Source: a phage
Assembly (NCBI GenBank): GCA_026066175.1
Contig: GCA_026066175.1_4721.2
Length of the DNA stretch: 64,000 bases
Reading direction: 5' to 3' (one strand)
Part shown: positions 11,186-28,007 of the stretch, one piece after another
Layout of the letters: the number at the start of each line of letters is the position of its first letter
Numbering within the stretch: position 1 is the stretch's first letter
The notes under the pieces: generated by a model
The model's database searches: none
What the model saw: only the letters and a program-made list of their open reading frames with translations
What the model was told of the DNA's origin: nothing
Translations under genes and position numbers: made by a program

Positions 11186-11201
11186 GTCTTTTCCTATTTA
11201 A

Positions 11202-12053
11202 TCAGTTATATTGCATCAACAGGATACCGCCGTAGTTCGTGCAGTAATCTTGACTTAGTGTAACGATAACCGCATTAGCGAATGCTGGGTTAACCGGATA
11301 GCCCTGGGCGATAAGGTCGGTTGTTTTACCGGTTGCAAGCACGGTTGCCCCATACAGGTTGTTTTCGTCCTCACGACCGTTATAAACCCAAGGGGTTGGT
11401 GCAACGTTGTTGAATAAACTCACCAGTGCGCTTAAGTTACCACCAACCTTTAATCCAGCAAGATCAGAACGGATGGCTGTACAATCAATAGCGTAACTGT
11501 AAACCAATGCCTGGATACGGTTGGCTGTGTAGTACGGGAAATTGAGGCCGGTCATTACCGTGGTCCTCATCATCCCCGCAATATCGCGTGCGCTATCGAG
11601 GAGATAAAATTTAACACTCCCCGTCCAGGCTAATCCGGTTGTTTTCAATTCTACGACATGAGGGAACGGATATTCATCACCTCGAACAATCGGAGAATCA
11701 ACGCAGCTTTCCTGATCGATAACGATTCCGTAGGTTGATTGGATCAGCGGGATAAGATCGTGCGTGGTTTTAACCCCAGCATCGATTGCAAGCTTCGGCT
11801 CCATTCCCAAGAAGAAATCCTGGATTGGAATACGATCGTACCATACGTAGCTGCTTTCACGGTACTGCGCTGGTGTCACGGTTGCCGAAGGCGATACTTT
11901 AGCGCGGGTATTTCGATTATACGCGTGGTTTCCGTTTTCAGCAACATCCGTGATATCAAGTGCATCGAAGTTAAAGTCGAAGTCAGGATTGGCTACCTGA
12001 ATAAGTTCGGCGACCAGTACTTTAGGACTTTTGTTTAACAATTTCTGACTCAT
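11202..12053 (-). CDS. hypothetical virion-associated protein, paralogue family A
   Basis: 283-aa ORF; LIPLIQSTYGIVID...LAWTGSV...YCTNYGG motifs shared with the 12064..12999 product; SD aagga. Confidence 0.65.
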   Translation of the reverse strand: MSQKLLNKSPKVLVAELIQVANPDFDFNFDALDITDVAENGNHAYNRNTRAKVSPSATVTPAQYRESSYVWYDRIPIQDFFLGMEPKLAIDAGVKTTHDLIPLIQSTYGIVIDQESCVDSPIVRGDEYPFPHVVELKTTGLAWTGSVKFYLLDSARDIAGMMRTTVMTGLNFPYYTANRIQALVYSYAIDCTAIRSDLAGLKVGGNLSALVSLFNNVAPTPWVYNGREDENNLYGATVLATGKTTDLIAQGYPVNPAFANAVIVTLSQDYCTNYGGILLMQYN

Positions 12054-12063
12054 TGTTTATTCC

Positions 12064-12999
12064 TTAGCCTTGTTCTTTCGGGGAACGGCCCTGAAGGCTT
12101 GCGGTATGCCCGTCGACATTATAATAGAAAATCAACGGACCGCCAACAGCAGTACAGTAGTTTTCATCCAGACTGATTTCGATGCCGTATTGGTAACCTG
12201 CGCGAGCCGGGATACGTTCGCCTAACTCACCGTTGAAATCCACCTTCGCGTTATACAGGTTGTATGGCGCTGTGTTATCGGTTAATACCCAACGATCGGT
12301 GGTCATTTCAGCCAGAAGGTCAGCAACCATCACATCGCTAACAACGGTACCTGTTACCAGCGAAGCCAAAAGCTCACCGTACTCAGACGTATCGCGACTG
12401 TAACTGTAGATTTCACCGCTTGCACGTACACCCTGTCCAAAGAACTTAAGACCGTCCAGCTCTTTGATCGCGATGATATCATCAAGATTCGGTACACGCG
12501 ATTTCATCAGGATACGAACGCTCCCCGTCCAAGCCAGGCAACTAGATACGACGCGAAGCAACTGTCCGTTAACGGTATCCCAGTTAAGTTCATCGTTGAC
12601 GATTTCTTCAGCTGTAAGGCCAAGACCGAAACGTTCCTTGATGATAGGCCAGATATCACGCATCTTGGTGGCGTCTGGCGCATCAATAAGAATAGGCGCT
12701 ACGTTACGCAGATACGCGCCGATATTAATACGATCGTAATACAGCGTCGTCGAACCTTCATAATCGTCTAACTCAGTAAGCTTAGCGGTTGCCGTTGCCG
12801 TAATCTGGGTGTCGCGCTCGTAGGCGCTTTGGTTAGTGGTTGGTGTTCCTAAAACCAATAATTCAGGTGTCAGGACGTGTTCTCCGTTCTGAGGTGGGTT
12901 ATCGTGGTTGATAAGACCGTACACGAGATCGGATGAAGGTAAAGAGACGTCAACCGGGTAAAGTTCGGTGCCGTCAGTAGTTGTTACCGTATCACTCAC
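12064..12999 (-). CDS. hypothetical virion-associated protein, paralogue family A
   Basis: 311-aa ORF, apparently GTG-initiated with a strong SD (gaggagg 6 nt upstream); LAWTGSV and YCTAVGG motifs shared with 11202..12053. Confidence 0.6.
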   Translation of the reverse strand: MSDTVTTTDGTELYPVDVSLPSSDLVYGLINHDNPPQNGEHVLTPELLVLGTPTTNQSAYERDTQITATATAKLTELDDYEGSTTLYYDRINIGAYLRNVAPILIDAPDATKMRDIWPIIKERFGLGLTAEEIVNDELNWDTVNGQLLRVVSSCLAWTGSVRILMKSRVPNLDDIIAIKELDGLKFFGQGVRASGEIYSYSRDTSEYGELLASLVTGTVVSDVMVADLLAEMTTDRWVLTDNTAPYNLYNAKVDFNGELGERIPARAGYQYGIEISLDENYCTAVGGPLIFYYNVDGHTASLQGRSPKEQG

Positions 13000-13058
13000 G
13001 GTGGCCTCCTCGCCAGAAATTAGTTAAAAAAGAGTTTGCGATATGCTGCGCTATCACG

Positions 13059-15470
13059 TTAAGCATCCTCGGTAGGTAATGGTTTCACAATCAAACGATT
13101 GAGCGGATTCGATAGGCGCATACTGATAGGCTTATACGCAGCATGATTCGTTTCGCTCAATACAGCGGATCGGAAGCGACCTTCAACACGTTTATAGATT
13201 GGGTTTATCCAAAGACCCTGAAGACCCGGTTGACGGAAACGTTGTTCGATAGGTTTAATCGGTTTCACGGTCAAACCACGTACCGCTTCTGACGGTATAC
13301 GTTCGCTGATGTCGCGAGGTGCTCGACCTGGGAATGGAGCCAACCAGAGACCATCCAGCGGGTTCTTACGGAAACGCAACGAGATAGGATCGCTGATAAC
13401 CTGCGCCCAGTACTGCGTGCTGAACCGTACCGTCTGGGTATTCTCGTATCCGCTGCAATCGCACCAGGTGGGTTTCGGCGGGGCTTCTAAGCTCTCAACC
13501 GCGGATTCACGCCAGTTCGTCATTGGGTTGTTATCATGGACGAATTTGATAACTTCCGTAGCTTGGTTATCCGTATCGTGAACGTTTGCTTGTGCCCAGT
13601 CCTCCCACAGTTCTTCACTGCCGCTTACCAAACTTGAACCGAGCCGAACGGCAATTTTGTTCAGTGGTTTGATCGGATCGCTGTTGATTGTCTGGATAAA
13701 ATGGATGGTGTAACTGCTCAGTGTTTTAAGCAGTTGTAGCATCCCGTATTGAATATCCTTAAGACTGGTAACGTCTTCCAAGTCTTGACCGGTGGCCTTC
13801 GTGAAGATATCGAGAGCCAGAATCCCCGCTTCTTCTTGACTGATTGCGTCAAGCTCCCAATCCATCGCTAAGAACCATTCCTTGTAAAGCTGTCCAATAC
13901 CGAAATCAACCCCAACGTCCATGTAGAAGTTTTCAACGATAGCCTCAGCCATACCTCGAGCCTGGTAATGCTCCTGAAGCTGATACATGAACTGATGACG
14001 ACGCCATCCCTGATAGATTTCTGTAACGATGTTAAGAAATTCCTCAGTACTGACAATAGGACGTAATGTCACCTGTTTATCTAAACACCACCAGATCAGT
14101 TTGTCAGGAATGATAACCGGATCGGTAATGCTACGAAGATGCTCGAATGTCGGTAACGTTAAAACGCGGACGTGGTTAGCATGGATCTTAGGTACTTCAA
14201 TGAGCGTCATACCCATCGAATAGTTCAGCAAATACAAGAATAGCTTGTAGGCATCTTTCATCGACATGGTCATGGTATCACCCGTCACCGGGTTGGTGGT
14301 GGTTAACCGTGACTGATACATGCCGATGGAACTCAGATGGATCCATTCGTTGAGCAAGAAATCGTATTTCGGGTATAACTCACTGTCGGTAAGATCTTCC
14401 GCTTCACTTTCCAATACCTTGGTTGTTAAGGTATTATTGTCATGCATCGACATCTTCTCTATTGTGCGGTTAAGCTCGGTATAATACTCCGCTTCGTTAT
14501 CCCGCGCTAGAGGGAACTGTTGTTGCATTACGGTGGTGACCTTACGACGTACCGTCCCGTTACCAACGATCTCTTGAAGGTTAAGCGGTTTACGTTCCAT
14601 GTAAACAGTGGGTTTTAACGTCTGAGGTATTTCGGAAGCGTCTTGTTTGATCGAGAACGCACCGATTGGAATACCACGATCGGTGAGTACCTTCTGAATA
14701 AGCTTATCGTAGTTTTCCGTTCTACCCATGTTCCTTTCGACGTAAGCGATGTTACGATAAAACCAGAGCATTTGGGATTCTGTCATGTATCGCTTGAAAC
14801 GATCAAGGCCTTGATGGCTTGCCAGATAGCTCCAGATATGGAAGCTATGGGCATAATGGGTATGACAGTTTTCCCAACGAATACCTTTTATCATCTCAGG
14901 TATTTGTGTGAATAGAATAGCATATAACGCAGGCCAATGAAGCATATCGACGCTTTCATACGCGGGATGTTCCCAGCGCCGGAAGTAGTCGTCGATTTCT
15001 TGCTGTAATCGTGGAATAAGGTTGGCTTCGCGTGATTCAACCTCGCGGGTATCGTACCAGAGAATCTCGTGATTGCGTGCAGCAAGGGCTTTCTCGATAT
15101 CGATGGGGTTAAGGATACCCAGGATTAACATACGTTGTTCTGGGTACCGTGCAATTAGACGATTGAAATAATCTCCGCCGTACGCGTATTCCCTTGCGGT
15201 CATGCGGTGCCGTAGCATGTTTTCCTTGGTGAACTCGATCTCTTCGAGCGTATCCAGGGAATTGACGGTCATCATTGTCTGACAAGGATGATACTCGCCA
15301 GCGAGATTCATGTAGTATAACCACGTGCGTGGGTCGTCCCCGACGGCCATCTGGTAGACTTCGGAAACCTTGAGGTTTAACCGTTCTGCCGTGATGTCGC
15401 TTTTAATAATCAGGGTGTCCGTTAGACGCTGCACGCTTTCCGAATAAAGCTGATAGTCAGTGTTGGACAC
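13059..15470 (-). CDS. large hypothetical protein with C-terminal RFR/GLW short repeats (start uncertain)
   Basis: Long ORF; the track start at 15539 is a TTG with no SD, whereas the in-frame GTG at 15470 is preceded by ggagga (6-nt spacer); the first in-frame ATG is at 15350. C-terminus has repeats SLRFRKNPLDGLWLAP / EQRFRQPGLQGLWINP / EGRFRSAVL. Confidence 0.55.
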   Translation of the reverse strand: MSNTDYQLYSESVQRLTDTLIIKSDITAERLNLKVSEVYQMAVGDDPRTWLYYMNLAGEYHPCQTMMTVNSLDTLEEIEFTKENMLRHRMTAREYAYGGDYFNRLIARYPEQRMLILGILNPIDIEKALAARNHEILWYDTREVESREANLIPRLQQEIDDYFRRWEHPAYESVDMLHWPALYAILFTQIPEMIKGIRWENCHTHYAHSFHIWSYLASHQGLDRFKRYMTESQMLWFYRNIAYVERNMGRTENYDKLIQKVLTDRGIPIGAFSIKQDASEIPQTLKPTVYMERKPLNLQEIVGNGTVRRKVTTVMQQQFPLARDNEAEYYTELNRTIEKMSMHDNNTLTTKVLESEAEDLTDSELYPKYDFLLNEWIHLSSIGMYQSRLTTTNPVTGDTMTMSMKDAYKLFLYLLNYSMGMTLIEVPKIHANHVRVLTLPTFEHLRSITDPVIIPDKLIWWCLDKQVTLRPIVSTEEFLNIVTEIYQGWRRHQFMYQLQEHYQARGMAEAIVENFYMDVGVDFGIGQLYKEWFLAMDWELDAISQEEAGILALDIFTKATGQDLEDVTSLKDIQYGMLQLLKTLSSYTIHFIQTINSDPIKPLNKIAVRLGSSLVSGSEELWEDWAQANVHDTDNQATEVIKFVHDNNPMTNWRESAVESLEAPPKPTWCDCSGYENTQTVRFSTQYWAQVISDPISLRFRKNPLDGLWLAPFPGRAPRDISERIPSEAVRGLTVKPIKPIEQRFRQPGLQGLWINPIYKRVEGRFRSAVLSETNHAAYKPISMRLSNPLNRLIVKPLPTEDA

Positions 15471-15497
15471 GATCGGTCCTCCAAGGAGCCAGTGTAA

Positions 15498-18416
15498 ATG
15501 AACGATATAAATAAAGGGCGCGTCGCCCTCGAACGTCAAATGAGCAATAATGACGTTGCGAAGGCACTCATGAACAAATTTGTCGCTCCTGCTCCGCAGT
15601 CACGTCTTTATAACACACGTGAAGCGGAAGGAGCGAGCGGTCGTTTCGGGTTAGTTGTTCCCGACCAGATGACGATGAACACGGTGACGCGTGCGACCGC
15701 AACAAACGTCGAGGATAATAAAAACATCCTCGAGTTGTTCCCTGAACTTAAACGCGTGATGCAGATCTATGTTGCCGCGTTGACGAACCCTAACGATCTT
15801 AAGACGGTCGAGATGTTCATCGACAGCGAAGATTTCCCCGGCAGAGTCGCAGAAATCGTTCAGCCGATGATCGATACCATCGACACGCATTTTAAGAATA
15901 TCTATAAAATAAAGACGCTTATCCCTCGTATCATCGAAGATGTCTTCTTTATCAAGGGCAGCTATAACTTCGTTGTTCTGCCTGAAAGCACGCTCGATCG
16001 TGCTATTAACGGCAACGGCCAACTGAAACTCGAAGAATACGGATTTAAAAACAATCATTTCGCCAGCTGGGGGCTGCTGGGGAATGACAGCCGTATACGC
16101 AGTCAACATCAGTTACCGACAACGGTTTCGATGGAAGATTATTTTTCAGGCGTTAACGAAACCATCCCGTACGATCCGGTTGTCCGTATCGATAGCATCA
16201 AGTTTACCAACACGATGCTCCGTGATAAAGACGGTAAATTCATTGAAGCGAAGGTCGATATTCCGGATATGGTTACGGTTGTTGATAACCCAGACATCCT
16301 TCGCATGCCGATTTTACACCAACGTCGTGCGTCAACAGCCGTGCAACGTGCATTACGTGCAAACACCTTAGGCGGTAACGGCCTGGTGACGTTATCAGGC
16401 GATCCGACGCAAACCGCGAATCGACGTGAGCTGACACAAGAGCAAGTTAATGAGATCTGGAATAAACTAAACATCCAACGTCATACCAAGGTATCGCCTG
16501 TGTACGCACTAGCAACCCCGGATACCCTTGACCGTCAAAGCGTTGGTCATCCTGGCGTAATGCATGTACCACCTGAGTCATTAGAACCGGTTCATGCGCC
16601 TGGCGATCCAGAGAACCATATCGGTTATCTCGTCCAGCTGGATGAATTCGGTTACCCAGTACGTTTGGTTGAAGATGCTGCGTATTACAAACAGCTGGAA
16701 GGTCGACTGTCGAAGATCACGGCGGATATTGCCGGTACATCAAGCAACGGAATGGCGAGTGAGATGATCGGGGCAGCGAAGAACATGGTTCAAGGTACGT
16801 CGTGTAACCAAGTCGATATGTCAGCGTTTGTCTCGTCGTACGAATCACTGATGCAACGTTATATCGTTGAACGTATCGTTAACGGTTACCTCGGCAGTGC
16901 GGTAGAAATCGGTGCAACGTCGTCGTTCTATCTGTCGATGCTTGCCCGCAGTCTTGCTCACAAGCAAACCCGTGTTTTGTTTATTCCTCGTGAGATGGTG
17001 ACATACATCGCCTACGAATACAACAAATACGGGATTGGACGTTCCTTGCTTGAAAGTACGAAGATGATCTCATCGCAACGCGCGATGCTCATGGTTCAGG
17101 AACTGATGGCGAAAATCAAAAGTTCGTTGAACTATACGACGCTGAGCGTGATGCTCGAAGACACCGATAGAAACCCGGTTGATACCGTTGAGCAGGCATT
17201 GCACAGTTTTGCTCGTGTTTATCAATCTGGTTTCCCGTTGGGTGAAACCAACCCAATGGATATCATCAATGCATACGAACGAAGCTCGATTCGATTGAAG
17301 GTTGAAGGGAACAACCCACGCTTCCCGAAACTGAACACCGACGTTAGCGTTGAACAACGTAACTACCAATCCCCGGATGATGAGCTGATGGATCGTTACC
17401 GTCGTGATCATTTCATGGGTCTGGGTGTTTCTCCAGAGATCGTTGATACGTCCTACCAATCTGAATTCGCGGCGTCGGTGATTACGGCTAACGCGATGCA
17501 AGAGAAACAGTTCACGGTTTGTCGTGAGGTCGTCACGAATGGCTTAACTGATCACATCAAGAAGTATACGGCTTATAGTCCTGTGCTTCTGACGTCGTTA
17601 CGCAATACCGTTCGCGCGAATATGTCAAAGCTCTCTCAAGCGCAGCTGCAACAGCTCTTTGGTAGCGACTTCGAAAACGGTGTTATTCGTAACGTGAACG
17701 CGTATCAGGAGATTGATGATCGATCGGTGACAATGGATCTGGATTACACCAAACCGGAAGTCCAGGAAGTGATTGCTGACGCTTATGTCTCCATGTTCTT
17801 AAACAGCTTGCAGGTACGTTTACCGGATAGCAACGCGCGTCGCCTTGAAGATCAGGTACGTGAATATAATCAGTACAAGGAAGCGATTACAGCACAACTT
17901 GATGATTATTTAACACCGGATTATGTCATGGGTCTGGGTGGGGTCGATGAAACAACCCTGCAGATGATTCGAGCGTGCATCATTGGTACGGCGATGAGGA
18001 CATGGGCGAAAGAAAACAACTTCAATCAGGAGCTGGCCGATCTCTTTAGTCTCGACGATAAGAAGAATGCCGTCCAGGATTGGAAACGTGCATCCATGGA
18101 GCATATTGAAATCATGGGTAAATGCATGGGTGATTTCGCACTCTATATCCAAAACCTGACGAAGCAAATCGAAGAGAAGATGGGCGACCAAGCACAAGAC
18201 GGTAGCGTTTCATCTGACGGCTCATGGTCATCGGATTCCGGTTCGGATAGCGGTTCTTCCGATGATTTCGGTGGTGGTGATGACTTTGGTGGCGACGACG
18301 ATTTCGGAATGGAAGAAACCGAAGAATCCACCGAGGAAACCACTACGGAAGAAACAACCGATGAAACTGGTGATAATGCCGCATCAGAAGACGATACCGC
18401 AGGTGATATTGTCTAA
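15498..18416 (+). CDS. large hypothetical virion protein with acidic DDFGG-repeat C-terminal tail (portal-like size; function unverified)
   Basis: 972-aa ORF; SD aaggag 9 nt before ATG; C-terminus SSDDFGGGDDFGGDDDFGMEETEESTEETTTEETTDE... is low-complexity and acidic. Confidence 0.6.
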   Translation: MNDINKGRVALERQMSNNDVAKALMNKFVAPAPQSRLYNTREAEGASGRFGLVVPDQMTMNTVTRATATNVEDNKNILELFPELKRVMQIYVAALTNPNDLKTVEMFIDSEDFPGRVAEIVQPMIDTIDTHFKNIYKIKTLIPRIIEDVFFIKGSYNFVVLPESTLDRAINGNGQLKLEEYGFKNNHFASWGLLGNDSRIRSQHQLPTTVSMEDYFSGVNETIPYDPVVRIDSIKFTNTMLRDKDGKFIEAKVDIPDMVTVVDNPDILRMPILHQRRASTAVQRALRANTLGGNGLVTLSGDPTQTANRRELTQEQVNEIWNKLNIQRHTKVSPVYALATPDTLDRQSVGHPGVMHVPPESLEPVHAPGDPENHIGYLVQLDEFGYPVRLVEDAAYYKQLEGRLSKITADIAGTSSNGMASEMIGAAKNMVQGTSCNQVDMSAFVSSYESLMQRYIVERIVNGYLGSAVEIGATSSFYLSMLARSLAHKQTRVLFIPREMVTYIAYEYNKYGIGRSLLESTKMISSQRAMLMVQELMAKIKSSLNYTTLSVMLEDTDRNPVDTVEQALHSFARVYQSGFPLGETNPMDIINAYERSSIRLKVEGNNPRFPKLNTDVSVEQRNYQSPDDELMDRYRRDHFMGLGVSPEIVDTSYQSEFAASVITANAMQEKQFTVCREVVTNGLTDHIKKYTAYSPVLLTSLRNTVRANMSKLSQAQLQQLFGSDFENGVIRNVNAYQEIDDRSVTMDLDYTKPEVQEVIADAYVSMFLNSLQVRLPDSNARRLEDQVREYNQYKEAITAQLDDYLTPDYVMGLGGVDETTLQMIRACIIGTAMRTWAKENNFNQELADLFSLDDKKNAVQDWKRASMEHIEIMGKCMGDFALYIQNLTKQIEEKMGDQAQDGSVSSDGSWSSDSGSDSGSSDDFGGGDDFGGDDDFGMEETEESTEETTTEETTDETGDNAASEDDTAGDIV

Positions 18417-18502: not shown

Positions 18503-18778
18503 TTATCTCGAGTTTAACCACGATTCAATTGTGGTGAGGTTGCTTCGCAATACGCGCCAACTAGGGTGTGGTGGGATCACAGCACCTTTGTCGATTACGG
18601 TTAGCTGAGCCTGGTACTTCTGTTTCATACGGGCTACCGTAGCGCTTACCGAAAGGAAAAGCTGGTAACGTTCGTACACCGTCAGTTCATCTTCCCGTCG
18701 AACTGCTCCTGTTGCTAACGTAATTTCGCGTAAGTCCTTTGCGTCCATCGGGACAGTAATGAGTTTATAATGACTCAT
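18503..18778 (-). CDS. small hypothetical protein
   Basis: 91-aa ORF between the hairpin element and the 18799-18820 hairpin. Confidence 0.5.
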   Translation of the reverse strand: MSHYKLITVPMDAKDLREITLATGAVRREDELTVYERYQLFLSVSATVARMKQKYQAQLTVIDKGAVIPPHPSWRVLRSNLTTIESWLNSR

Positions 18779-18798
18779 AGGGGTTTCCTTATCAACCA

Positions 18799-18820
18799 GG
18801 GTATTGCGTTAACAATACCC
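18799..18820. terminator. hairpin gggtattg-cgttaa-caataccc between genes (terminator or operator candidate)
   Basis: 8-bp perfect inverted repeat centred on a gttaac palindrome, 9 nt downstream of the stop of 18829..21420. Confidence 0.35.
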
Positions 18821-18828
18821 ATCGTCAA

Positions 18829-21420
18829 TTACTGTTCGTCGCGTTCCAACAGGTACTCGGAAGCCGTAACACCGTTTACAGTACGGATGGCTTTCAGACG
18901 TGTATCATCGTTCAGAATCACGGTAACAGACTGCAGACCTTTTACCTTGGTTTCGAAGGTTTTGAATACCTGGTCTAACATACGTGCGATGCTTGGGTTG
19001 GTGGCAGCTGATGCGTGGGTATACCCACTCTGATTAAGTTTCAGAATCTTCGCGTTGGTTGGTACACGAACGATAACATGCGGACGCATAGCGAACACGC
19101 TGTGGTTGAACCAGTACGCATCCGGGCTGTCTTCATCGGTCACGAGGTCTGGATGGGTCTGCATATCTTCAGCTGCAGCATCCGCCAAACGACGTTCGAT
19201 TTCGTCAGCATCCAGAGAACCATCTTTCTCCAGCTCAGCACGATACTCATCCATGATTGCCGCGCGACGCTCTTGATTTGCGACCATCTTATCATGAGCC
19301 GCATTCAGGTAATCGTTCATGCTGTAAAGCTCTGCCATGGAAAGACGGATGTTCCACTGACCAACACCGTCACGATTGCAGTAGAGGCATTTCAACATAT
19401 TGCCCCAGGTGTGATAGCAACGGGTGAACTCGTCTTCGATGAACTTCTGATCCATTTTAAGTTCGTTGATCAGCCAGCTATACAGCTCACCGACATCATC
19501 TACGAAGCTTGCAATGGTGGTTTCAGAGAAGTTCTTAGGTACAACACGCTTGATCCATTTGTTGATGTCTTTGGTCATGCTGTCGTTCAGGAAATGCCAG
19601 ATACGCAGAGGGATAACCTCTCTGTGTTGTTGCATGACCTGACGATAGGCTGACACACCTTCAATATGACCTTTATCAATAGACAGGGCATCCAGGAATT
19701 CCTGGATAGCATCAAGCTGTTTATCGGTGTAGGTTCCCAGGTAGGAATTGACTGTGGTCAGGAACGCCAAAGCATCGTTCTGGTTGACGTCGGTATTGGT
19801 CTGCTGGATGATCGCAACCGTCGCTTTGGTTTCAGCGTCTTCGATGCTGGATGCCGGAACCATGTCAGTGACAGTGAACAGTTTCATCTCACGCTGTTCG
19901 CCAACAACAATCGGTTCACGTCTAACCGGTTTGTTCAGGCTAACACGCACAACTTCTGCTTGCGCGATACGATCCCATTCTGCCATTTCCAGCTCCGCCA
20001 TACGACGTGCGGTTGGATCTGTTTCAAGTTGAATGTATTCCATTTCTTCCACCGTAAGTGAGGTAATATCAACAATGGTTTCATGAAGAATTCCGTTTTC
20101 GTCAATGCGAGCGCGACGAGCGAATTGCCTGAAGTCATACGCGGTTGGCCAACGGCTATCAGGCGCGTAGTCTTTGGCCTTCAGACGCATTTGCATGAAT
20201 TCTTCATGGTGAACAACACGACCGTATTGCTTCGCATCTTCGGTCGCATCAAGAGGGTCAACCGTTTTGGTTACCGTCGCAGGACGTACGCTACGTACCG
20301 GCTCAGGTTTTACCTTCACGGTTTCAGGTTGAGTAGGTGCTTTCTGCTCAGCCTTAACATGCCATTTCGGTTCTTCGTACTGCTCAGCGAATTGCTCAGC
20401 TACCGCAAAGATATCGTTGATGCCGCCAATATCTCCATCCGGATGGGTTGAGTAAATACGCGTTTGTGGTGCTTCCTGACGCGTTGCTGCTGGAGCAGGT
20501 TTATCGTCAACTGGGTCATCATCACCAACATCGTACAAACGGTTGAACGCACACTCCTTCGAATCCATATACGAAGGTGCTTGCTGCTGAACAACCGTTG
20601 GTCGAGGTTGTGTGCCGTATCCTGGCATTGTCGGAGCCATACCACGCATAACCGCTGGATTAGGTTGGTACTGCGGCTGAGGATAAGCTCCACCGTACGT
20701 GTTATACACAGGTTGTTGAGGTTGACCGTATCCGGCGTTGACCATCGCGTTTGCTTGCGGTCCGCGATAGGTCATTCCCAACTGCGTTACCTGCGCTTTT
20801 AACGCACGTGTCTTCTGCGCGATTTGATTCAGAGTCCCACCTTGATTCAGTTGTGTATACTTATTCGCTGCTTCCGGGTTAATGCGCGTTAATTCCTTTG
20901 CACGATAATACTCAGGATATTGATTGGCCTCAAAGAGCCACTGTACAAGATGCATAAGTATCGTTGTACGTACCGCGGTGTCGATAATCTGATCGACTGA
21001 TGCATTCTGAGGCGCTGGGTTGATATAAGAGAATACGTTCCAGCAGCAGTCCTCAACAAGTGACTCCATCGCCTCGTTGTTATTGGCGTAACGTGCCACG
21101 AACTGTGTTTGAATATCGTCTTGCTGAGCATGCTCTTTCAGGACATTAAAGATAGCCTGACGGATTTTGACGATATTTCCTTCGTTGGTGATGAACTGGT
21201 AGTTCTGCTGATATGCTGGATTAGGTTGGTATTGCGGTGGTTGTTGGTAACCGCCCCCGTATTGTGGATAAGCCGGTTGCTGGGGTTGGTACGGAGGTTG
21301 TTGATATTGCGGTTGCTGGTACTGTTGTTGACGCACCTGGTCAGCTGCAAATCGAACCGTGCTTGCGTACGGGTTCTCGCTATAGCCCATTTGTTGGTAT
21401 ATGTTGTTACCGTTATACAT
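18829..21420 (-). CDS. hypothetical protein with two Q/Y/P-rich low-complexity (prion-like) segments
   Basis: 863-aa ORF; residues ~28-75 (QQYQQPQYQQPPYQPQQPAYPQYGGGYQQPPQYQPNPAYQQNYQ) and ~225-270 (GYGQPQQPVYNTYGGAYPQPQYQPNP...); SD aaaagga upstream. Confidence 0.7.
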   Translation of the reverse strand: MYNGNNIYQQMGYSENPYASTVRFAADQVRQQQYQQPQYQQPPYQPQQPAYPQYGGGYQQPPQYQPNPAYQQNYQFITNEGNIVKIRQAIFNVLKEHAQQDDIQTQFVARYANNNEAMESLVEDCCWNVFSYINPAPQNASVDQIIDTAVRTTILMHLVQWLFEANQYPEYYRAKELTRINPEAANKYTQLNQGGTLNQIAQKTRALKAQVTQLGMTYRGPQANAMVNAGYGQPQQPVYNTYGGAYPQPQYQPNPAVMRGMAPTMPGYGTQPRPTVVQQQAPSYMDSKECAFNRLYDVGDDDPVDDKPAPAATRQEAPQTRIYSTHPDGDIGGINDIFAVAEQFAEQYEEPKWHVKAEQKAPTQPETVKVKPEPVRSVRPATVTKTVDPLDATEDAKQYGRVVHHEEFMQMRLKAKDYAPDSRWPTAYDFRQFARRARIDENGILHETIVDITSLTVEEMEYIQLETDPTARRMAELEMAEWDRIAQAEVVRVSLNKPVRREPIVVGEQREMKLFTVTDMVPASSIEDAETKATVAIIQQTNTDVNQNDALAFLTTVNSYLGTYTDKQLDAIQEFLDALSIDKGHIEGVSAYRQVMQQHREVIPLRIWHFLNDSMTKDINKWIKRVVPKNFSETTIASFVDDVGELYSWLINELKMDQKFIEDEFTRCYHTWGNMLKCLYCNRDGVGQWNIRLSMAELYSMNDYLNAAHDKMVANQERRAAIMDEYRAELEKDGSLDADEIERRLADAAAEDMQTHPDLVTDEDSPDAYWFNHSVFAMRPHVIVRVPTNAKILKLNQSGYTHASAATNPSIARMLDQVFKTFETKVKGLQSVTVILNDDTRLKAIRTVNGVTASEYLLERDEQ

Positions 21421-21454
21421 CTTCTTACAATCCTTTTATTTATTCGATTAGGTG

Positions 21455-23251
21455 TCAATCGATTATGTCACGATCGTTAATTTCTACAATTTCTTCATCG
21501 AATCGACCGACGTCTTTCTTCAAGCCTGCGTTTGTTGCTGCAACGTCATTTGCGATTTGTGGGGTAACGATTAACCGACCACGATCGTCAATCGGTGCGT
21601 ACATACTGAACTTCTGGCGTCCGGTTGGTTCGGAGTGCGGAAGATTCAGATAGCTCGCGCAGAACGGGATGGAACCGCTCACCAAACGACTCTCGTCAGC
21701 CAATGCGGCCCCGCCCGCATTTTGACTCTGGAGAACAACATGTGTACTTACTTTGAACAGCATGCAGTCACCAGGTGATTGAATCGAGGTTGCCACTTTC
21801 TCGCGTTTATCACGATTGCTCTGGATGTTGAGAATCGCTTCTGTTGCAACTTGATTGCGTAACGCTTTTTGTACATCGCGATTGGTCATCTCTTTCCGGT
21901 TGTTCTGTCGTTTACCACGTTCAGTGGTTTTAAGATGGAACCCCAGTTTAAAGATGCTCTTACGCACATCCTCCATGACGTATTCCAACACCATCAGTTC
22001 CTTACCGAACATCGTCGTGGTGTCGACACGACTCATTTCGATAGTGACGTTATCAATCAAATACGCCATGAATTCGTAGAAGTCGTCGCACGGAATATTT
22101 TCCTGTTTGAACTTCTTCTGTTGAATTTCGTCAACGTAAAGATCGAGGCTGTCGATGTGGTGGTTTACATCACGCAACAAACGCGCATCCGCATTGTTGT
22201 TATTAAAGATAATCAAACCGAGTAGCGTACGCCAGTGGTCTGTCGCATTCGCGAACTCTTCAACCGGATAGTCTTCTGGAAAACGATCGTAATAACGGTC
22301 GATGAGATAGAGGAACGCACCGACAAGACCGAGCACAATACGTTCCGTGCCGCCACGTCTTACCGCGATTTGAATATCAGGATGTTTATAACGTACCGCG
22401 CTAACGCTACGACTCTTACCGCTTTTGCTAATACTAAAGCCTTTAGGAATAACGCCCATGGTGCGATAGATTACCCATTGGTCGCGCGGAAAATCACGTT
22501 CAGCGAGATTCCGTCCGGTTATTGCTTCGACGCCTGCAAAACGCCGGAAACATTCACCCACGCCATATTTCGCAAAGAGATAATGGCCCAACGTGGTTAC
22601 GCTGGTGTGGTTGATGTTGTCCCCGTTCACCTTGCTTTGTTTGGTAAGGTGATAGATTTGCGACCAGGGCAATGACAAGTAATGTCGATAATCATTACCG
22701 GTTGGTGTATCATTGCTCAGGAACTGATACGGCGTACGCTTAACGGTGATTTTGTCACGCGGAAGCATGATGAACGCCATGTCTTTCGTGTAACTGATTA
22801 CCGGGTCAGCAAGCACCGCACTGAGAATGAAGTTCGCACCACGTAGACGCATCTTGCCACCCTGACCTACCGCAGGCAATAGGAGAGGATGCCGGATGAT
22901 GCAGTAATCCTTGCCGGGTTCACGACGGTCACCTGCTTCCATCGCGCCATACCAGCGGAATTCTAACATCACCATGAACACATCGGAAGGCGCAAGGTCG
23001 AACGTCAGCTTACCGCTATCCTTCCCTTTGGTTTTCTTTCCTCCGCTTAAGTAGTGAAACTGTTCGCGGGCCATACAACGACGTAGGCCATGATACACCA
23101 GATCCTTAGGTAAACTATCTTTGCTGTTCCGCCAAAGACGATCGACGTAGGACTCAACATCTTGCATCTTATCGACGACGATGTTGCGTGCTATCTTCTC
23201 GTTCATCTTCGGTGCAAGCTCAGCGACAGCTTTGCAGAATCTAGGATCCAT
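21455..23251 (-). CDS. hypothetical protein
   Basis: ~598-aa ORF; the ATG at 23251 has SD aaggag with a 6-nt spacer (the track start at 23254 is a GTG only 3 nt from the SD). Confidence 0.65.
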   Translation of the reverse strand: MDPRFCKAVAELAPKMNEKIARNIVVDKMQDVESYVDRLWRNSKDSLPKDLVYHGLRRCMAREQFHYLSGGKKTKGKDSGKLTFDLAPSDVFMVMLEFRWYGAMEAGDRREPGKDYCIIRHPLLLPAVGQGGKMRLRGANFILSAVLADPVISYTKDMAFIMLPRDKITVKRTPYQFLSNDTPTGNDYRHYLSLPWSQIYHLTKQSKVNGDNINHTSVTTLGHYLFAKYGVGECFRRFAGVEAITGRNLAERDFPRDQWVIYRTMGVIPKGFSISKSGKSRSVSAVRYKHPDIQIAVRRGGTERIVLGLVGAFLYLIDRYYDRFPEDYPVEEFANATDHWRTLLGLIIFNNNNADARLLRDVNHHIDSLDLYVDEIQQKKFKQENIPCDDFYEFMAYLIDNVTIEMSRVDTTTMFGKELMVLEYVMEDVRKSIFKLGFHLKTTERGKRQNNRKEMTNRDVQKALRNQVATEAILNIQSNRDKREKVATSIQSPGDCMLFKVSTHVVLQSQNAGGAALADESRLVSGSIPFCASYLNLPHSEPTGRQKFSMYAPIDDRGRLIVTPQIANDVAATNAGLKKDVGRFDEEIVEINDRDIID

Positions 23252-23290
23252 CACACACTCCTTACAGAAAGTTGCTTAAGCAGATTAAAG

Positions 23291-24673
23291 TTATTTCTTC
23301 GATGACACCTTCTCAAGAATCTTGAAAAAGGTCATACCTATACCGACAACGGCTGCGGTGATGCTTGCTGCAGCTTTCCAAACATCGACGTTACGTTGAC
23401 GTCGTGCTTCTTCCGCTTCACGTTGTCTTTTTGCCTCTTCATCACGTCGGCGTATTTCAGCAGCGAATTCCTCATGCTTACGTTTCGCGTCTTCGTCTCG
23501 GCGACGCATTTCAGCGATAAGTTCATCGTGCTTACGTTTCGCGTCTTCATCGCGACGTTTGAGTTCAGCCAGATGGTCATCTTGCATTTGTCGCCGAAGT
23601 TCGTCCTGACGTTTCATTTCGGCTCTATGCTGCTCATCACGCAGTTTTGCTTCAGCGCGATGGGTCTCTTGCATCCGTTCGATGATGTCTTTATGTTCAT
23701 CCGCCATACGTCGCATTTCAGCCATCACCCCTTTAAGGGTTTCTTCTGATGACTTACGTTCGTAGCTACGCTGGTCGAAATCATTTTTGTAGGCTTCCTT
23801 CTGGATGGGATCGCGCCAATGCAATGCCGATTCGCGGGTTGGAAAAACATTGTATTTCCACATTTCTTTTTCCAAATCTTCTACCGGTACGAAGACGGAA
23901 TCATTATTCCCGAAGGTAACCAACATCCCTGGAGCACCTGCCCCGTTCGTTGGTTTTATTTCGAACGCTTTCCCCAAGACGTTAACCCATAAGCTGTACG
24001 GATTATGGAAGTCTGGTGGCGTCCAATGGATGGTGAGCTGTGTTCCGAGAATCCGGAACCCCTCTGGTTTTCCTGTTAAACTTCGCGCACATGTTGCGAT
24101 ATAGGGGTGATCAATCCCTTTCGTAACATGGTCAGCGCTTTTGTATTCTCCTTTAACTTTTACGATTGCCACGTTAATTTGCGCGACATACACAGGTTGA
24201 TTAAAATTTAAGGCTGTTAGGTCTATTCGACATATCTCGTCCAAGGTGTCGTACCAATCTTCCTGGTCGAGCAACCTGGGTTTTCTCTCGACGCACGTAA
24301 TGCGTCGGATATGGGGTTTTCTTACCGCATAACCGCTTCGGTTTTTAACGCCCAGTATATCCCGTCGTCTACCGTCGTAGACGAAGTTCTTGAACGCGCC
24401 ATTCGCATTAGATATGTCATGGCTGTCAACTATTACAGGACTACGAAATTTTGAACGTCGTACGATCCTGAATGTGTTACCCTCTTCGACCCTACCTGGA
24501 ATGTATTGGAACATATTGTCGGATGTAATGACCAATACCGTATGCCCAGACTCATTAATACAACCCCACCCTAACTCTAAGTCATATAACGGTTCCTGGT
24601 ATCCGTCGATGCTATACGTGCCTGTGCCATCCCACGGCTCAAACGGCGTATCGCAAACCGGCATAGAGGACAT
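23291..24673 (-). CDS. C-terminally membrane-anchored protein with ER/K-rich charged helical stalk
   Basis: 460-aa ORF with a strong SD (gagggagga). C-terminal third is highly charged and repetitive (RRDEDAKRKHDELIAEMRRRDEDAKRKHEEFAAEIRRRDEEAKRQ), followed by a hydrophobic segment AAASITAAVVGIGMTFF and a basic tail. Confidence 0.65.
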   Translation of the reverse strand: MSSMPVCDTPFEPWDGTGTYSIDGYQEPLYDLELGWGCINESGHTVLVITSDNMFQYIPGRVEEGNTFRIVRRSKFRSPVIVDSHDISNANGAFKNFVYDGRRRDILGVKNRSGYAVRKPHIRRITCVERKPRLLDQEDWYDTLDEICRIDLTALNFNQPVYVAQINVAIVKVKGEYKSADHVTKGIDHPYIATCARSLTGKPEGFRILGTQLTIHWTPPDFHNPYSLWVNVLGKAFEIKPTNGAGAPGMLVTFGNNDSVFVPVEDLEKEMWKYNVFPTRESALHWRDPIQKEAYKNDFDQRSYERKSSEETLKGVMAEMRRMADEHKDIIERMQETHRAEAKLRDEQHRAEMKRQDELRRQMQDDHLAELKRRDEDAKRKHDELIAEMRRRDEDAKRKHEEFAAEIRRRDEEAKRQREAEEARRQRNVDVWKAAASITAAVVGIGMTFFKILEKVSSKK

Positions 24674-25014: not shown

Positions 25015-27237
25015 TCAGTTAGTCTGAACCGGCAGCTTGATGTTTTCAGTGTAGACCTTACGCAGGTTCACAACGTTGATCAGACCCAGCAGCGGGCAGT
25101 TGTTCACGAAACGGCAGCGCGGCTGAACCATGGTTTCTTTAGAAACCTGACCGTTACGAGTAACCTGAGCAACGGATACCAGTTCCGGTACGTACAGGAA
25201 CATACCGAAGGTCAGCGGATCCGGAGAACCCTGGATACCACGAGACAGGGTCACGAAGATCTTGTCGCGCAACATGACGTTCGGGTTGTCTACAACCACG
25301 AAGTTGAAGCTTACACCCACGGTGCGGAAGTCACCATCGGTCTGCAGGAACTGCGGGATGTAGTTGTCGGTTGCTACTACGCAACGCGGTTTCTCATCAG
25401 CGTTGGAAGACAGCAGCTGCAGAGCTGGCTGATAACCAGACTCGGAGTACATGCGGTACGCCATTTCACGAATCACGTTCATGATCGCAGCGGATACTTC
25501 AGCACGACGTTCTGCAGTGGTGGTACCCTGAACGGATTTCTCCAGGTCCAGATCGATTTCTTCGAACCACGGACGAATCAGGTAACGACCGAAACCTTCG
25601 ATCTGAATGTCACCGAACTGACGGAAGCGAGAAGTTGCAACCGCTTTCAGGGCGTCTTTGTAGCTGAACAGTTTCTCAACCATCAGGTTGTCGAAACGTG
25701 CGTTAGCTGCTTGGATCAGAACATCCAGGTCAGCAGCGTTTTCTTCCCAATCCAGCGGACGAGGAATGGAGAACGGAGCCAGCAGGCCGATTGCGTAACG
25801 TTCTTGCTTCATGTTGAAGTCAAGATGTTTACCGCGTTCACGACGGTTGCTGTTGTTACGACGGATACGCAGTTCGTAACCCACCAGTTTGAAGCTCAGG
25901 TCTTCAGCCAGATCTTTGAATTCCTGGCTCTTACGCGGTTGTTCGATGTTGTCCTGGTCAACCAGACGATACAGTTCAGCGGTAGCGCCATTAACACGCA
26001 GACCCGCTTTCTCTACGTTGGAAGAACCGTAAACTTCGATCGCCAGCTGAGCAGCAGATTTCGCATCGATGATGTCCTGCAGCGCTTCAGCTTTCGCACC
26101 TTTAACGTCAACGGTGTTCTCATCAACGAAGATGGAGTGGGTGTCGAACGCCAGGGTCATTTTGCGGAAGTCGCCTTCCAGGGATTTCTGGAAACCGTTG
26201 GTGATCAGACCGGATACGTCGAACGGAACGTAAGAGGTTTTGCTGTGCTTGGTGGATTTAATTTCCACCAGGATTTTGGTCAGCGTGATCTGAGCATCCA
26301 GCGCGTCAGTGTTGTCGCTGTAACCGTTAGCCAGAATGCTATCGTCTTCAGCGATACCGATCATGTCGATCAGTTTATCAACCGCCAGGTAAGACGTTTT
26401 GTAAGTAACGCCTTTGATTTCGATGTCGCGCGGAGCAACGATGGTTTTATCAACGAAGTACTGCGCGTTAGCATCGTCAGCACGGTAGATCGGATGCAGA
26501 TCGGTCACGTCGTTGGACAGAACGTCGTTGTACATGAACGCATCCAGCAGCGGACGACGTACCCAATCAGCCGGAGTACCATCACCGTTACGACGCAGGT
26601 GGTTGAACACCAGCGGACGACGGAAGGAAACGTCATAACCGATCTGGTTCGGAGCCAGAACGATGGTGTTGTACAGTTCGTTACCCATGCGGCTCAGACG
26701 AGACGCCTTCACGTTGAACACAACGGAGTACGGCATCATGTCACGCAGTTCTTTCTGGTCGTAGGACAGCTGAACCAGTTCTTCAGATTCACAACCGCAG
26801 GAATCCGCAGCCATCATGACGAAGTTAGCGCTGTCAACATCACGGCCGGACGGCGAGGTGCTGATGTTCATGGAACGTGCTTGTTTAGCATATTCCACCG
26901 GGTTGCCATGTGCCAGCATGATCAGCGCTGCAGCGCGAGCCTGCTGTGCGTTCATGGTGAACAGCTGTTCTTCAATACGTTGCTTCTCTTCCGGAGTTGT
27001 GGTTTCGAAGCCCAGCATGGACAGAACCGGTTCTTCAGCTTTACGGATGTCGCTGCTGAAGCTCTTAACATCCATTTCGTTAACCAGTTTGTCCATGGAT
27101 TTGAAATCAACCTTAGAAGCAGATTCCATAGACAGGAAGGTGTTTTCCAGACCTTTGTCTGCTGGTTTGCTACCATTAGCGGTCAGGAACTGGCGAGTGG
27201 CCGCGACCTGTTGGCTAAGAAGGGTTTTATCATTCAT
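25015..27237 (-). CDS. putative major capsid protein (highly expressed virion protein)
   Basis: 740-aa ORF with markedly optimised codon usage (CTG, CGT, GGT, AAC, TTC, GAA) compared with its neighbours; size matches jumbo-phage major capsid proteins; SD taaagga. The opposite strand carries a long stop-free antisense ORF, typical of highly biased genes. Identity not verified by similarity search. Confidence 0.5.
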   Translation of the reverse strand: MNDKTLLSQQVAATRQFLTANGSKPADKGLENTFLSMESASKVDFKSMDKLVNEMDVKSFSSDIRKAEEPVLSMLGFETTTPEEKQRIEEQLFTMNAQQARAAALIMLAHGNPVEYAKQARSMNISTSPSGRDVDSANFVMMAADSCGCESEELVQLSYDQKELRDMMPYSVVFNVKASRLSRMGNELYNTIVLAPNQIGYDVSFRRPLVFNHLRRNGDGTPADWVRRPLLDAFMYNDVLSNDVTDLHPIYRADDANAQYFVDKTIVAPRDIEIKGVTYKTSYLAVDKLIDMIGIAEDDSILANGYSDNTDALDAQITLTKILVEIKSTKHSKTSYVPFDVSGLITNGFQKSLEGDFRKMTLAFDTHSIFVDENTVDVKGAKAEALQDIIDAKSAAQLAIEVYGSSNVEKAGLRVNGATAELYRLVDQDNIEQPRKSQEFKDLAEDLSFKLVGYELRIRRNNSNRRERGKHLDFNMKQERYAIGLLAPFSIPRPLDWEENAADLDVLIQAANARFDNLMVEKLFSYKDALKAVATSRFRQFGDIQIEGFGRYLIRPWFEEIDLDLEKSVQGTTTAERRAEVSAAIMNVIREMAYRMYSESGYQPALQLLSSNADEKPRCVVATDNYIPQFLQTDGDFRTVGVSFNFVVVDNPNVMLRDKIFVTLSRGIQGSPDPLTFGMFLYVPELVSVAQVTRNGQVSKETMVQPRCRFVNNCPLLGLINVVNLRKVYTENIKLPVQTN

Positions 27238-27386
27238 TGAAAGTATCCTTTACAGATTTAACTTATATAAGTCGGTCGATAGACCATAGCGTACACGCGT
27301 GCATGCGCCACTATAGTATCAGTAAACACTTACCGTTATTGAGGTTGTGATACAACACTAAAAATGCCGCATAACTTTTCCCTACG

Positions 27387-28007
27387 TCACAAACGACGCA
27401 GGCGATAATGGATGGAACGATTGGTGCAATATGAACGGAACAGCGGTAATTGCGCAACTTCCGCAAGACTCATATTAATTCGCAGATGTTCGATAACCGC
27501 GCTGTAGTTATCGGCGATACGATCGCTCAGTAACTCTTCTGCCAATAAAGGAAGACAATCGACAACGATGGCGATCACATCCTCATTAACATAACGCACC
27601 CGAACATTGAGTGGACGTTTGTCTGGGCCGTAAGTTGGATCCGCCAAACGACGTTCAATATCGCGTGGATAGCTCGTCAGTAAATGGTAATAACCATTGT
27701 CATAACGATTGATGTACTCACACAGCACATCAACATTCTTCTCTGGCGGCAAACCTGTTTCGTCATAGTGATACGCAAACATACCACCAAGCAGGTTGTT
27801 AAGATGAACCGCAGGGTTCGCTTGTTCGTGTTCTTTCGTGATGAAGAAAGGCACGTTCTGGGCTGCGAAATAAAAACCTACATCATTGGGCGATAGTATG
27901 CCGAAAAGACTTTTAGGGTCTAATAACACCTGTAAGTCATCACGCGCATTTCGAATAATCGCGTGTTCTACCCAATTCGGAACGACGAGATATCGGAGTT
28001 CCTTCAT
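27387..28007 (-). CDS. hypothetical protein
   Basis: 206-aa ORF; SD agagg 8 nt upstream. Confidence 0.6.
   Translation of the reverse strand: MKELRYLVVPNWVEHAIIRNARDDLQVLLDPKSLFGILSPNDVGFYFAAQNVPFFITKEHEQANPAVHLNNLLGGMFAYHYDETGLPPEKNVDVLCEYINRYDNGYYHLLTSYPRDIERRLADPTYGPDKRPLNVRVRYVNEDVIAIVVDCLPLLAEELLSDRIADNYSAVIEHLRINMSLAEVAQLPLFRSYCTNRSIHYRLRRL

Follow-up and report, generated by a model that had tools for sequence, protein, structure and literature searches.

A Goslar-lineage ortholog of the phage protein JADA with low-complexity, tyrosine-rich segments that may serve as sticky tethers

The subject of this study is a gene within a 64,000-nucleotide stretch of phage DNA (contig GCA_026066175.1_4721.2 of NCBI GenBank assembly GCA_026066175.1; the whole stretch is referred to hereafter as the window) whose product carries two segments of markedly restricted composition. 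The gene is complete, lies at 18829..21420 on the minus strand and encodes 863 residues, with a Shine-Dalgarno-like AAAGGA sequence 5′ of its ATG. A search of 50,697 phage genomes returned, at the sensitivity used, a sole match (81% nucleotide identity) in Escherichia phage vB_EcoM_Goslar, a nucleus-forming jumbo phage of E. coli that belongs to the Chimalliviridae. The encoded protein is 80% identical (79.9%) to Goslar gp038 (QBO63831, YP_009820723; 852 aa, annotated "hypothetical protein"), for which 26 peptides have been recorded by LC-MS/MS; given an ortholog at this identity from which so many peptides were detected, we take the gene to be real. The gene directly upstream and the parts of the protein, from the N-terminus onward, are as follows (LCR, low-complexity region; NTD and CTD, N- and C-terminal domains; AF2, AlphaFold2; pLDDT, predicted local distance difference test).

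21455..23254, minus strand: non-virion RNA polymerase (nvRNAP) subunit gene; phrog_2943 "polymerase", E 8.6e-120
21331..21420, minus strand (residues 1–30): conserved N-terminal peptide MYNGNNIYQQMGYSENPYASTVRFAADQVR, nearly invariant in five Goslar-type sequences
21196-21330, minus strand (residues 31–75): LCR1, an uncharged tail of Q/P/Y whose tyrosines recur with a degenerate period of ~5 residues
20761..21195, minus strand (residues 76–220): N-terminal helical domain, all-helical in AF2 (H68-215), pLDDT ~56–72
20566-20760, minus strand (residues ~221–285): LCR2, the P/Q/G/Y/M-rich first part of the inter-domain linker
20512..20550, minus strand (residues 291–303): acidic short motif AFNRLYDVGDDDP at the end of LCR2, invariant in Goslar-type sequences
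20356..20427, minus strand (residues 332–355): amphipathic helix GINDIFAVAEQFAEQYEEPKWHV in the linker, AF2 helix 335–345
20224..20355, minus strand (residues 356–399): remainder of the linker, K/P/E/V/T-rich, predicted disordered, pLDDT 24–26
18832..20223, minus strand (residues 400–863): CTD, homolog of the dimeric Avs5-activating JADA CTD (by hhalign, PDB profile and Foldseek)
19117..19341, minus strand (residues ~694–768): acidic helical hairpin inserted in the CTD of Goslar-type proteins, with no counterpart in phiKZ JADA

The AF2 values stem from a full-length model built on a 5-sequence alignment (pLDDT 38.8, unusable for fold search) and from a model of the CTD built on 15 sequences (pLDDT 51.1). 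LCR1 scores 23–36 and LCR2 21–30 in these models, values consistent with both segments being disordered; the low range of 21–30 extends over residues 221–400, beyond which a mixed alpha/beta C-terminal region is predicted.

JADA is the name given by Muralidharan et al. (2026) to the Pa36 ortholog of phiKZ gp124, an essential early protein that activates three Avs5 clades (PMC12931631). The protein is abundant and specific to Chimalliviridae, and is laid out as an NTD (residues 1–170), a long disordered linker (170–270) and a CTD (270–721); its cryo-EM structure (9RP3) reveals only a CTD dimer of novel fold, the NTD and linker being without density, and the CTD alone suffices to trigger Avs5 (PMC12931631). 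A hallmark of the family is the location of its gene directly downstream of an nvRNAP subunit gene (PMC12931631), which is the position found here: the two genes share a strand and are separated by 34 nt, with no terminator-like site between them in a terminator scan. The upstream product has 98.8% amino acid identity to Goslar gp039 (listed as nvRNAP in Table S4 of the Goslar paper) and matches phiKZ gp123, and the same succession of nvRNAP subunit and JADA-type gene recurs in all further phage and metagenome loci inspected. A sigma-70 promoter scan gave no enrichment; such promoters are not relevant to phage RNA polymerases. The published homology table for this phage group (Prichard et al. 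2023, supplementary table 3) places Goslar gp038, PHIKZ124, 201phi2-1 gp204, RAY gp004 and the PhiPA3 counterpart in one column (PMC10299810). The PhiPA3 counterpart of phiKZ gp124 (L007 5149-7255; NC_028999 125935-128041) is annotated at 261 aa only, with an antisense "hypothetical protein" overlapping the rest of the expected gene, and this short annotation is probably a frameshift or annotation artefact. A literature match to "gp38", phiKZ gp038, proved to be an unrelated ribosome-associated protein and was set aside.

Two alignments were built, one of Goslar-type sequences (A2) and one of the open reading frame (ORF) downstream of the nvRNAP subunit in nine chimalliviruses (A3; phiKZ, 201phi2-1, LucasX, RSL2, PCH45, KpLz-2_45, Eowyn, AH06 and Proteus phage 10); hhalign paired them at 99.0% (E 7e-18, 363 columns), placing query residues 391–841 on phiKZ gp124 343–714, and phiKZ gp124 is itself essentially identical to chain 9rp3_A (1666 bits over 1–721). 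The best hit of a profile search of 177,635 PDB sequences was again 9rp3_A, weak alone (E 1.5) and colinear in three segments that include the linker. When Foldseek compared the CTD model with 350,542 chains, the top two places went to 9rp3_B and 9rp3_A (E 2.3e-6, probability 1.0; next 0.26). The top fold matches of the same model in BFVD were uncharacterised proteins, all from chimalliviruses and all positional orthologs (those with names come from Eowyn, RSF1, Vibrio 2 TSL-2019, Klebsiella phage Miami, RP12, Aeromonas D6 and PhiEaH1); the first of them, A0A5P8D2T8, has 687 aa, equal in length to the PCH45 protein. Within the CTD, N620 and D838 are invariant and F639 and P809 nearly so, and the Goslar-type insertion aligns to gaps in hhalign, with AF2 helices at CTD positions 302–333 and 339–356 (pLDDT up to 84).

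Other searches returned a narrow set of relatives. Pfam and PHROGs gave nothing significant for the protein, a word-indexed full-length search of 5.8 billion proteins recovered only four near-identical sequences, and a full-length family profile used in the same kind of search was swamped by low-complexity words and added almost nothing new, a CTD-only profile doing somewhat better. HMMER, run exhaustively against 1.84 billion cluster representatives, found Goslar-type proteins and one diverged relative only, P0005 (774 aa, 33% identity, E 1.6e-109), which is encoded on a syntenic metagenomic chimallivirus contig carrying the major capsid protein, the nvRNAP subunit, P0005 and the portal. A tblastn search of the CTD against the 50,697 phage genomes matched Goslar alone. 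The taxonomic range of the matches, in the HMMER search and among the BFVD folds, is confined to Chimalliviridae.

Set against this homology are the low confidence of the AF2 models (38.8 and 51.1) and the fold matches to 9RP3, which reach a template modeling (TM) score of only 0.23–0.26 from a poor CTD model (pLDDT 51); the Foldseek matches rest on local 3Di and sequence similarity and not on global superposition. For the NTD homology could not be established, an NTD-only local hhalign comparison with the JADA NTD being colinear over 70 columns at P/E 0.028 and a probability of 1.8%, and a HMMER alignment of the two being colinear but of negative score. With these points counted in, we have little doubt that the protein is the Goslar-lineage ortholog of JADA (Goslar gp038, phiKZ gp124, Pa36 gp316). 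The two share gene position and strand, the succession of a helical NTD, a long disordered linker and a large homologous CTD, a linker rich in G/Q/P/M/Y, and a Y-D-V motif that closes the low-complexity stretch. They differ in that CTD identity is only ~15%, the protein studied here has 863 rather than 721 residues, its linker is longer (~180 aa vs ~100 aa) and much richer in Tyr, its CTD bears a helical insertion of ~75 residues, and its N-terminus is extended by the Q/P/Y tail of LCR1. The host also differs, being E. coli, and dimerisation, essentiality, localisation to the early phage infection (EPI) vesicle and Avs5 activation are known from Pa36 and phiKZ only.

A preliminary description of the sequence had drawn attention to two segments made almost entirely of Q, Y, P, G and N within 20595..21339 (residues 28–276), and the string it quoted is exactly residues 31–75. 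For this segment, LCR1, the description is apt: Q accounts for 42% of residues, P for 22%, Y for 20% and G for 7%, Asn occurs just twice (4%) and none of the 45 residues is charged. The best 45-residue window has a Q+Y+P fraction of 0.84, a value reached by 0/2000 shuffled sequences (mean 0.357, SD 0.031, maximum 0.489), and the lowest Shannon entropy over 30-residue windows is 1.94 bits. LCR1 is the most extreme low-complexity stretch found in any of the window's 45 ORFs that reach 150 aa, the runner-up having a Q+Y+P fraction of 0.38. LCR2 fits less well, its Q/Y/P/G/N fraction peaking at 0.77 (30-residue windows) and its residues 229–283 comprising P (20%), Q (18%), G (13%) and Y (11%), much of the remainder being A (9%), V, T and M. 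A DNA tandem-repeat origin of LCR1 was ruled out, no repeat being detected in the DNA there. Synonymous codons are mixed (CAA 13, CAG 6; four different Pro codons; mixed Tyr codons); together with the absence of a DNA repeat, this indicates that the composition bias is held at the protein level. A phmmer search of the PDB with LCR1 alone gave only a chance arylsulfatase match.

The two segments occupy different places in the architecture. LCR2 constitutes the first ~65 residues of the ~180-residue connection between NTD and CTD, and its alignment is colinear with the linker of 9RP3 JADA, which is G/Q/M/P-rich and disordered; LCR1 extends the protein as an N-terminal tail ahead of the helical NTD. 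Both are under purifying selection in the Goslar clade, with a constraint like that of the folded domains. The ratio of nonsynonymous to synonymous divergence from Goslar (dN/dS, Nei-Gojobori; dS 0.9–1.9 throughout) is 0.12 in LCR1 (with one 13-codon indel) and 0.106 in LCR2 (no indels), compared with 0.09 for residues 1–30, 0.13 for the NTD, 0.15 for linker residues 286–399 and 0.08 for the CTD. The nine tyrosines of LCR1 are spaced with gaps of 3–7 residues, and the variance of these gaps is far lower than in shuffled sequences (2.04 vs 13.7, P = 0.002); the Goslar segment is also evenly spaced (P = 0.0018), which gives LCR1 in this lineage a sticker-and-spacer layout as in phase-separating domains. 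Among the linkers of orthologs, aromatic spacing was more even than random in Eowyn, AH06 and LucasX (P ~0.018–0.019) and not significant in the others.

Two islands of conserved sequence follow LCR2 within the linker. The acidic motif at residues 291–303 has Y-D-V/E counterparts at the matching linker site of more distant orthologs (AAYDVPG in phiKZ gp124, SLYDVP in 201phi2-1 gp204, SYDEVP in PCH45 and FDYDEDDV in P0005). In the amphipathic helix, residues G333, D336, A341, E342, F344, A345, E349, P351 and W353 are invariant even when P0005 is included, and P351 is conserved in at least 90% of 13 family members. One identified Goslar gp038 peptide, AAAEQFAEQYEEPEWHVK (residues 328–345, equivalent to ~339–356 of the protein encoded in the window), has a non-tryptic N-terminus produced by cleavage after Phe, between GINDIF and AAAEQ (Table S4, 10.64898/2026.04.21.720040); this cleavage could be background or processing inside the linker.

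Low complexity is a recurrent property of the family and not an oddity of a single protein. We scanned 22 family members and five further positional counterparts, and in almost all of them the N-terminus or the NTD–CTD linker is of low complexity, in one of three flavours. An uncharged flavour rich in Q/P/Y/F/M/G is found in the Goslar-type proteins, the phiKZ linker, 201phi2-1, Eowyn (Q30, Y12 and P11 in 107 residues), AH06, Proteus phage 10 (N-terminal "QFQQPQ" repeats), P0007 (N-terminal GYGQPQGYPQQPQYQQPQ) and P0008. The linker of LucasX (L009) is of an RGG/SYGG type. A mixed-charge R/D/E/G flavour characterises RSL2, FLC6, SURPRISE13, PCH45, KpLz-2_45, BUCT660 and P0010–P0016; linker tracts of 150–220 residues, e.g. 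GRDRGRGRDRDYDRDDRGGRDRDRR, occur in RSL2 (ORF114, L006), PCH45 (L012), KpLz-2_45 (L011) and BUCT660 (L019). The likeness of the mixed-charge and RGG/SYGG linkers to eukaryotic RS/RD and RGG regions suggests, at the level of sequence, that they may bind nucleic acid. Three further proteins encoded downstream of the nvRNAP subunit in more distant chimalliviruses, Erwinia phage EarlPhillipIV gp76 (L018 4956-6506) and those of Vibrio phage 2 TSL-2019 (L016 5171-7663) and Aeromonas phage ACP1 (L017 5221-7632), were not detected by the CTD hidden Markov model; they carry N/G/Q/P-rich low-complexity regions (with "NNPFLSNN" repeats in EarlPhillipIV), and that of Vibrio phage 2 TSL-2019 was recovered by the fold search. 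The three-flavour module and the tyrosine-periodic tail are new here; the low complexity of the family is not analysed in the JADA paper (PMC12931631).

This breadth bears on two statements of the preliminary description, which had called the composition typical of eukaryotic prion-like or phase-separating domains and very unusual for a phage protein. The second does not hold up: low-complexity tails and linkers are a trait of this family, 5040 candidates emerged from 370,617 phage proteins in a PLAAC survey (PMC5694896), and RNA condensates of ChmC (PhiPA3 gp61 / phiKZ gp67 / Goslar gp176), which binds RNA and is associated with the nucleus in Chimalliviridae, depend on the protein's disordered, N/G-rich tail (Enustun et al., NAR 2024, PMC11077065). 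ChmC resembles the present protein in that it belongs to this phage family and joins an oligomeric folded domain to a disordered region of low complexity; it differs in its unrelated fold (a Whirly tetramer), in the nature of its tail (~50–70 residues at the C-terminus, N/G-rich rather than Q/P/Y and followed by an acidic cluster) and in its RNA binding, which is shown for ChmC, whereas JADA-type proteins are not known to do anything comparable. The first statement stands as far as composition goes, LCR1 being uncharged, Q-rich and of pLDDT 21–36 together with LCR2, with regularly spaced tyrosines. LCR1 shares with FUS, hnRNPA1 and the Sup35 N domain an uncharged, Q-rich, disordered sequence, ~20% evenly spaced Tyr and GGYQQ-like motifs. 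It departs from them in that proline is far higher in the LCRs (20–22%) and Asn, Ser and Gly are lower; typical aromatic-sticker or prion-like domains moreover exceed 100 residues, compared with the 45 of LCR1, whose context is an early protein of a lytic phage. The term "prion-like" was too strong, a proline content of 22% arguing against amyloid or prion behaviour.

How might such segments serve a JADA-type protein? A JADA-mScarlet fusion is spread diffusely until the cells are infected, and only then gathers in foci at EPI vesicles (PMC12931631); antisense knock-down of phiKZ gp124, which is synthesised early, weakens the phage and disturbs its transcription at 30 min (PMC12571901). We propose that, the CTD being dimeric in JADA, each particle would display a pair of tails and a pair of linkers, non-amyloid chains that carry no charge, are stiffened by proline and have tyrosines at regular intervals. 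The LCRs could then act as long flexible tethers that also bear weak multivalent "stickers", and these stickers would help to bring the protein and its partners together, during infection, at the EPI vesicle or the nascent nucleus. Assembly of this kind would be heterotypic and dependent on infection, and would be neither a self-propagating prion nor an autonomous droplet. Condensate formation by the LCRs is a plausible hypothesis; autonomous condensation is not indicated, since Pa36 JADA shows a diffuse distribution in cells without infection and behaves as a clean dimer on purification (PMC12931631). Taken alone, the sticky-tether role, the likeliest of those weighed here, is one we put forward tentatively, as somewhat short of probable, and the combined proposition of a JADA ortholog whose LCRs are disordered sticky tethers at the EPI vesicle or nascent nucleus seems to us evenly poised.

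Several observations weigh against assigning stickiness to these segments. The diffuse distribution of Pa36 JADA when expressed alone and its clean dimeric state when purified (PMC12931631) are among them, and indicate that its linker does not bring about autonomous condensation at those concentrations. LCR1, at 45 residues, is short for a phase-separating domain, and aromatic spacing in LCR2 does not differ from random (P = 0.52). Some family members, e.g. an EL-like phage, show little low complexity. Conservation, the lack of which the preliminary description had named as a ground for refutation, gives a divided answer: within the Goslar clade the LCRs are conserved (dN/dS 0.11–0.12 at dS ~1), but LCR1 is 13 residues shorter in Goslar and absent from P0005 (33% identical) and P0009, the linkers of which are Q/P/G/N-rich and Tyr-poor. 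Purifying selection on composition is moreover also expected if a linker need only stay disordered, soluble and of a given length.

That last possibility is the main rival, in which the LCRs are passive entropic tethers with no requirement beyond length, flexibility, solubility and protease tolerance so that the NTD can reach partners at a distance from the C-terminal dimer, the Q/P/Y composition being one of several that would serve equally and having no function in self-association. Linker composition that differs radically by lineage (Q/P/Y, RGG or R/D) is as expected if only disorder and length matter, and the lack of linker sequence conservation in P0005, the random aromatic spacing of LCR2, the soluble behaviour of JADA outside infection and the recombination breakpoint within the linker that is described below all suit it. 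It sits less easily with aromatics that reach 20% and are evenly spaced in the LCR1 of two diverged sequences, with LCR dN/dS as low as that of folded domains, and with the position of LCR1, which as a terminal tail rather than a linker tethers nothing; generic flexible linkers, besides, are usually rich in charged residues, Ser and Ala, and all three linker flavours belong to low-complexity classes linked in eukaryotes to multivalent assembly or RNA binding. We consider purely passive tethering rather unlikely. A different emphasis would make the region a docking platform, the LCRs together with the Y-D-V patch (291–303), the helix (332–355) and PPQY (61–64) acting as short linear motifs for host or phage partners. 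The linker islands shared with P0005 and the recurrence of Y-D-V in phiKZ, 201phi2-1 and PCH45 speak for this, with the caveat that the motif scan was regex-based and covered few sequences. PhiKZ gp124 is also listed second-hand with those early proteins for which binding to host DnaX or FtsZ has been reported (PMC11849849), in a statement that does not say which protein binds which. In one variant the PQ-rich stretch and the acidic patch after it would mimic the disordered linker and acidic tip of host single-stranded DNA-binding protein (SSB): after 9RP3, the only other PDB matches of the family profile are C-terminal linkers of SSB, GGWGQPQQPQGG, and the E. coli SSB linker (PDB 1EQQ, 4MZ9) is likewise G/Q/P-rich, uncharged and followed by an acidic patch. 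These matches are insignificant and compositional (E 5–5.5), and SSB mimicry was set aside on that account; the SSB linker has no Tyr periodicity, the acidic tip of SSB is C-terminal rather than internal, and recognition of that tip needs a free C-terminal carboxylate, which an internal motif is missing. As the principal role of the LCRs docking is quite unlikely in our estimation, and a docking role of the linker islands is compatible with both the sticky-tether and the passive-tether views.

Two more explanations concern the fate of the protein as a whole. Conversion of the Q/Y-rich segments into a self-templating, prion-like or amyloid aggregate that alters activity would draw on the Q-rich, Y-rich, uncharged and disordered character of LCR1 (42% Q, 4% N, a Q/N-rich and charge-poor stretch as in prion domains) and on its GGYQQ-type motifs, reminiscent of yeast prion domains. 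Proline, strongly disfavoured in amyloid-forming prion domains on prion-propensity scales and low in such domains, stands at 22% in LCR1 and 20% in LCR2; LCR1 has just two Asn and, at 45 residues, is shorter than the ~60 usual for a prion-domain core; a lytic infection of tens of minutes offers no obvious use for a heritable conformational state; and JADA behaves as a soluble dimer. We give an amyloid switch next to no credence. The protein could instead travel inside the capsid and enter the cell by injection, the LCRs then aiding packaging or passage through the tail. Goslar gp038 was detected in purified virions (26 peptides, 28% coverage, an estimated ~17–39 copies per virion, or about 25, comparable with the estimate for the portal), and its gene sits among head genes, the portal and, nearby, the major capsid protein. 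In the same preparation, however, the non-structural nucleus protein ChmC is found at an estimated ~78 copies, from which it follows that abundant non-virion proteins co-purify; 201phi2-1 gp204 is not among the mass-spectrometry-defined virion proteins of that phage, phiKZ gp124 is listed as "uncharacterized" rather than virion and is synthesised early, and the Goslar virion model has no density assigned to gp038. Virion packaging of Goslar gp038 is unproven, and as an explanation of the LCRs we regard it as very unlikely.

The gene also lies in a region of unusual divergence. Amino acid identity to Goslar is low for the JADA ortholog (gp38, 79.9%), gp37 (80.2%) and gp40 (85.4%) and high for the nvRNAP subunit embedded between them (98.8%), the major capsid protein (98.4%), the portal (96.9%) and gp35 (96.5%), such that 18503-24673 forms a local divergence hotspot between flanks (11200-18416 and 25015-28007, with the major capsid protein, portal and gp33–35) at 96–98%. 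We read the locus as a mosaic of diverged alleles and not as the outcome of uniform drift; with dS ~1 at low dN/dS, the JADA ortholog looks to have been replaced by a diverged allele rather than to be under relaxed selection. A chimeric form of the gene is found in IMG/VR UViG_3300011560_000001 (L013, 3001-5592): its residues 1–285 are identical or nearly so to those of the window (dS 0–0.10), its CTD is of the Goslar kind, with a dS of 0.11 to Goslar as against 0.9 to the window, and the breakpoint falls inside the disordered linker, at residues 286–399. An attractive notion, to judge from these sequences, is that the immune-sensed CTD may be exchanged by recombination at the disordered linker.

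The remaining neighbours at the locus are these.

15498..18416, plus strand: portal gene, counterpart of Goslar gp36, the portal according to the cryo-EM paper on Goslar
neighbour of the JADA ortholog: gp37 homolog, a 91-aa ORF
23291-24673, minus strand: homolog of Goslar gp40 and phiKZ gp122, 460 aa

The portal ends in an acidic S/D/G/E/T-rich low-complexity tail (residues ~915–972, 18240-18416, plus strand) that contains SSDGSWSSDSGSDSGSSDDFGGGDDFGGDDDFGMEETEESTEETTTEETTDETGDN and is the second lowest-entropy segment of the window. Imperfect, highly charged repeats (RRRDEDAKRKHDELIAEM / RRRDEDAKRKHEEFAAEI) make up the C-terminal third of the gp40 homolog, and the protein ends in a hydrophobic stretch, AAASITAAVVGIGMTFF, followed by KK, an arrangement in which it looks like a tail-anchored membrane protein; it is conceivable that it has a tie to the membrane of the EPI vesicle. 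Phage transcription is likewise perturbed when phiKZ gp122 is knocked down by antisense (PMC12571901).

For the Goslar-type phages, the immediate gain is that a "hypothetical protein" becomes a named member of a family. JADA is essential, early, abundant and a shared trigger of three Avs5 clades; in the lineage studied here its gene is a hotspot of divergence and recombination among otherwise near-identical Goslar-like genomes, which bears on how phages might vary a protein that the immune system senses. The low-complexity segments offer a testable handle on how the protein becomes concentrated at the EPI vesicle, the least understood stage of infection by nucleus-forming phages. A bolder extension, which we hold to be improbable as things stand, is that the tails and linkers of the JADA family, far from being passive spacers, are a conserved assembly module in three interchangeable flavours, paired on the CTD dimer, that would nucleate or join a condensate-like hub, located at the EPI vesicle or nascent nucleus and serving early transcription and translation. 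If true, this module would be a bacterial-virus counterpart of eukaryotic transcription and RNA-granule scaffolds, carried on the very protein that Avs5 senses.

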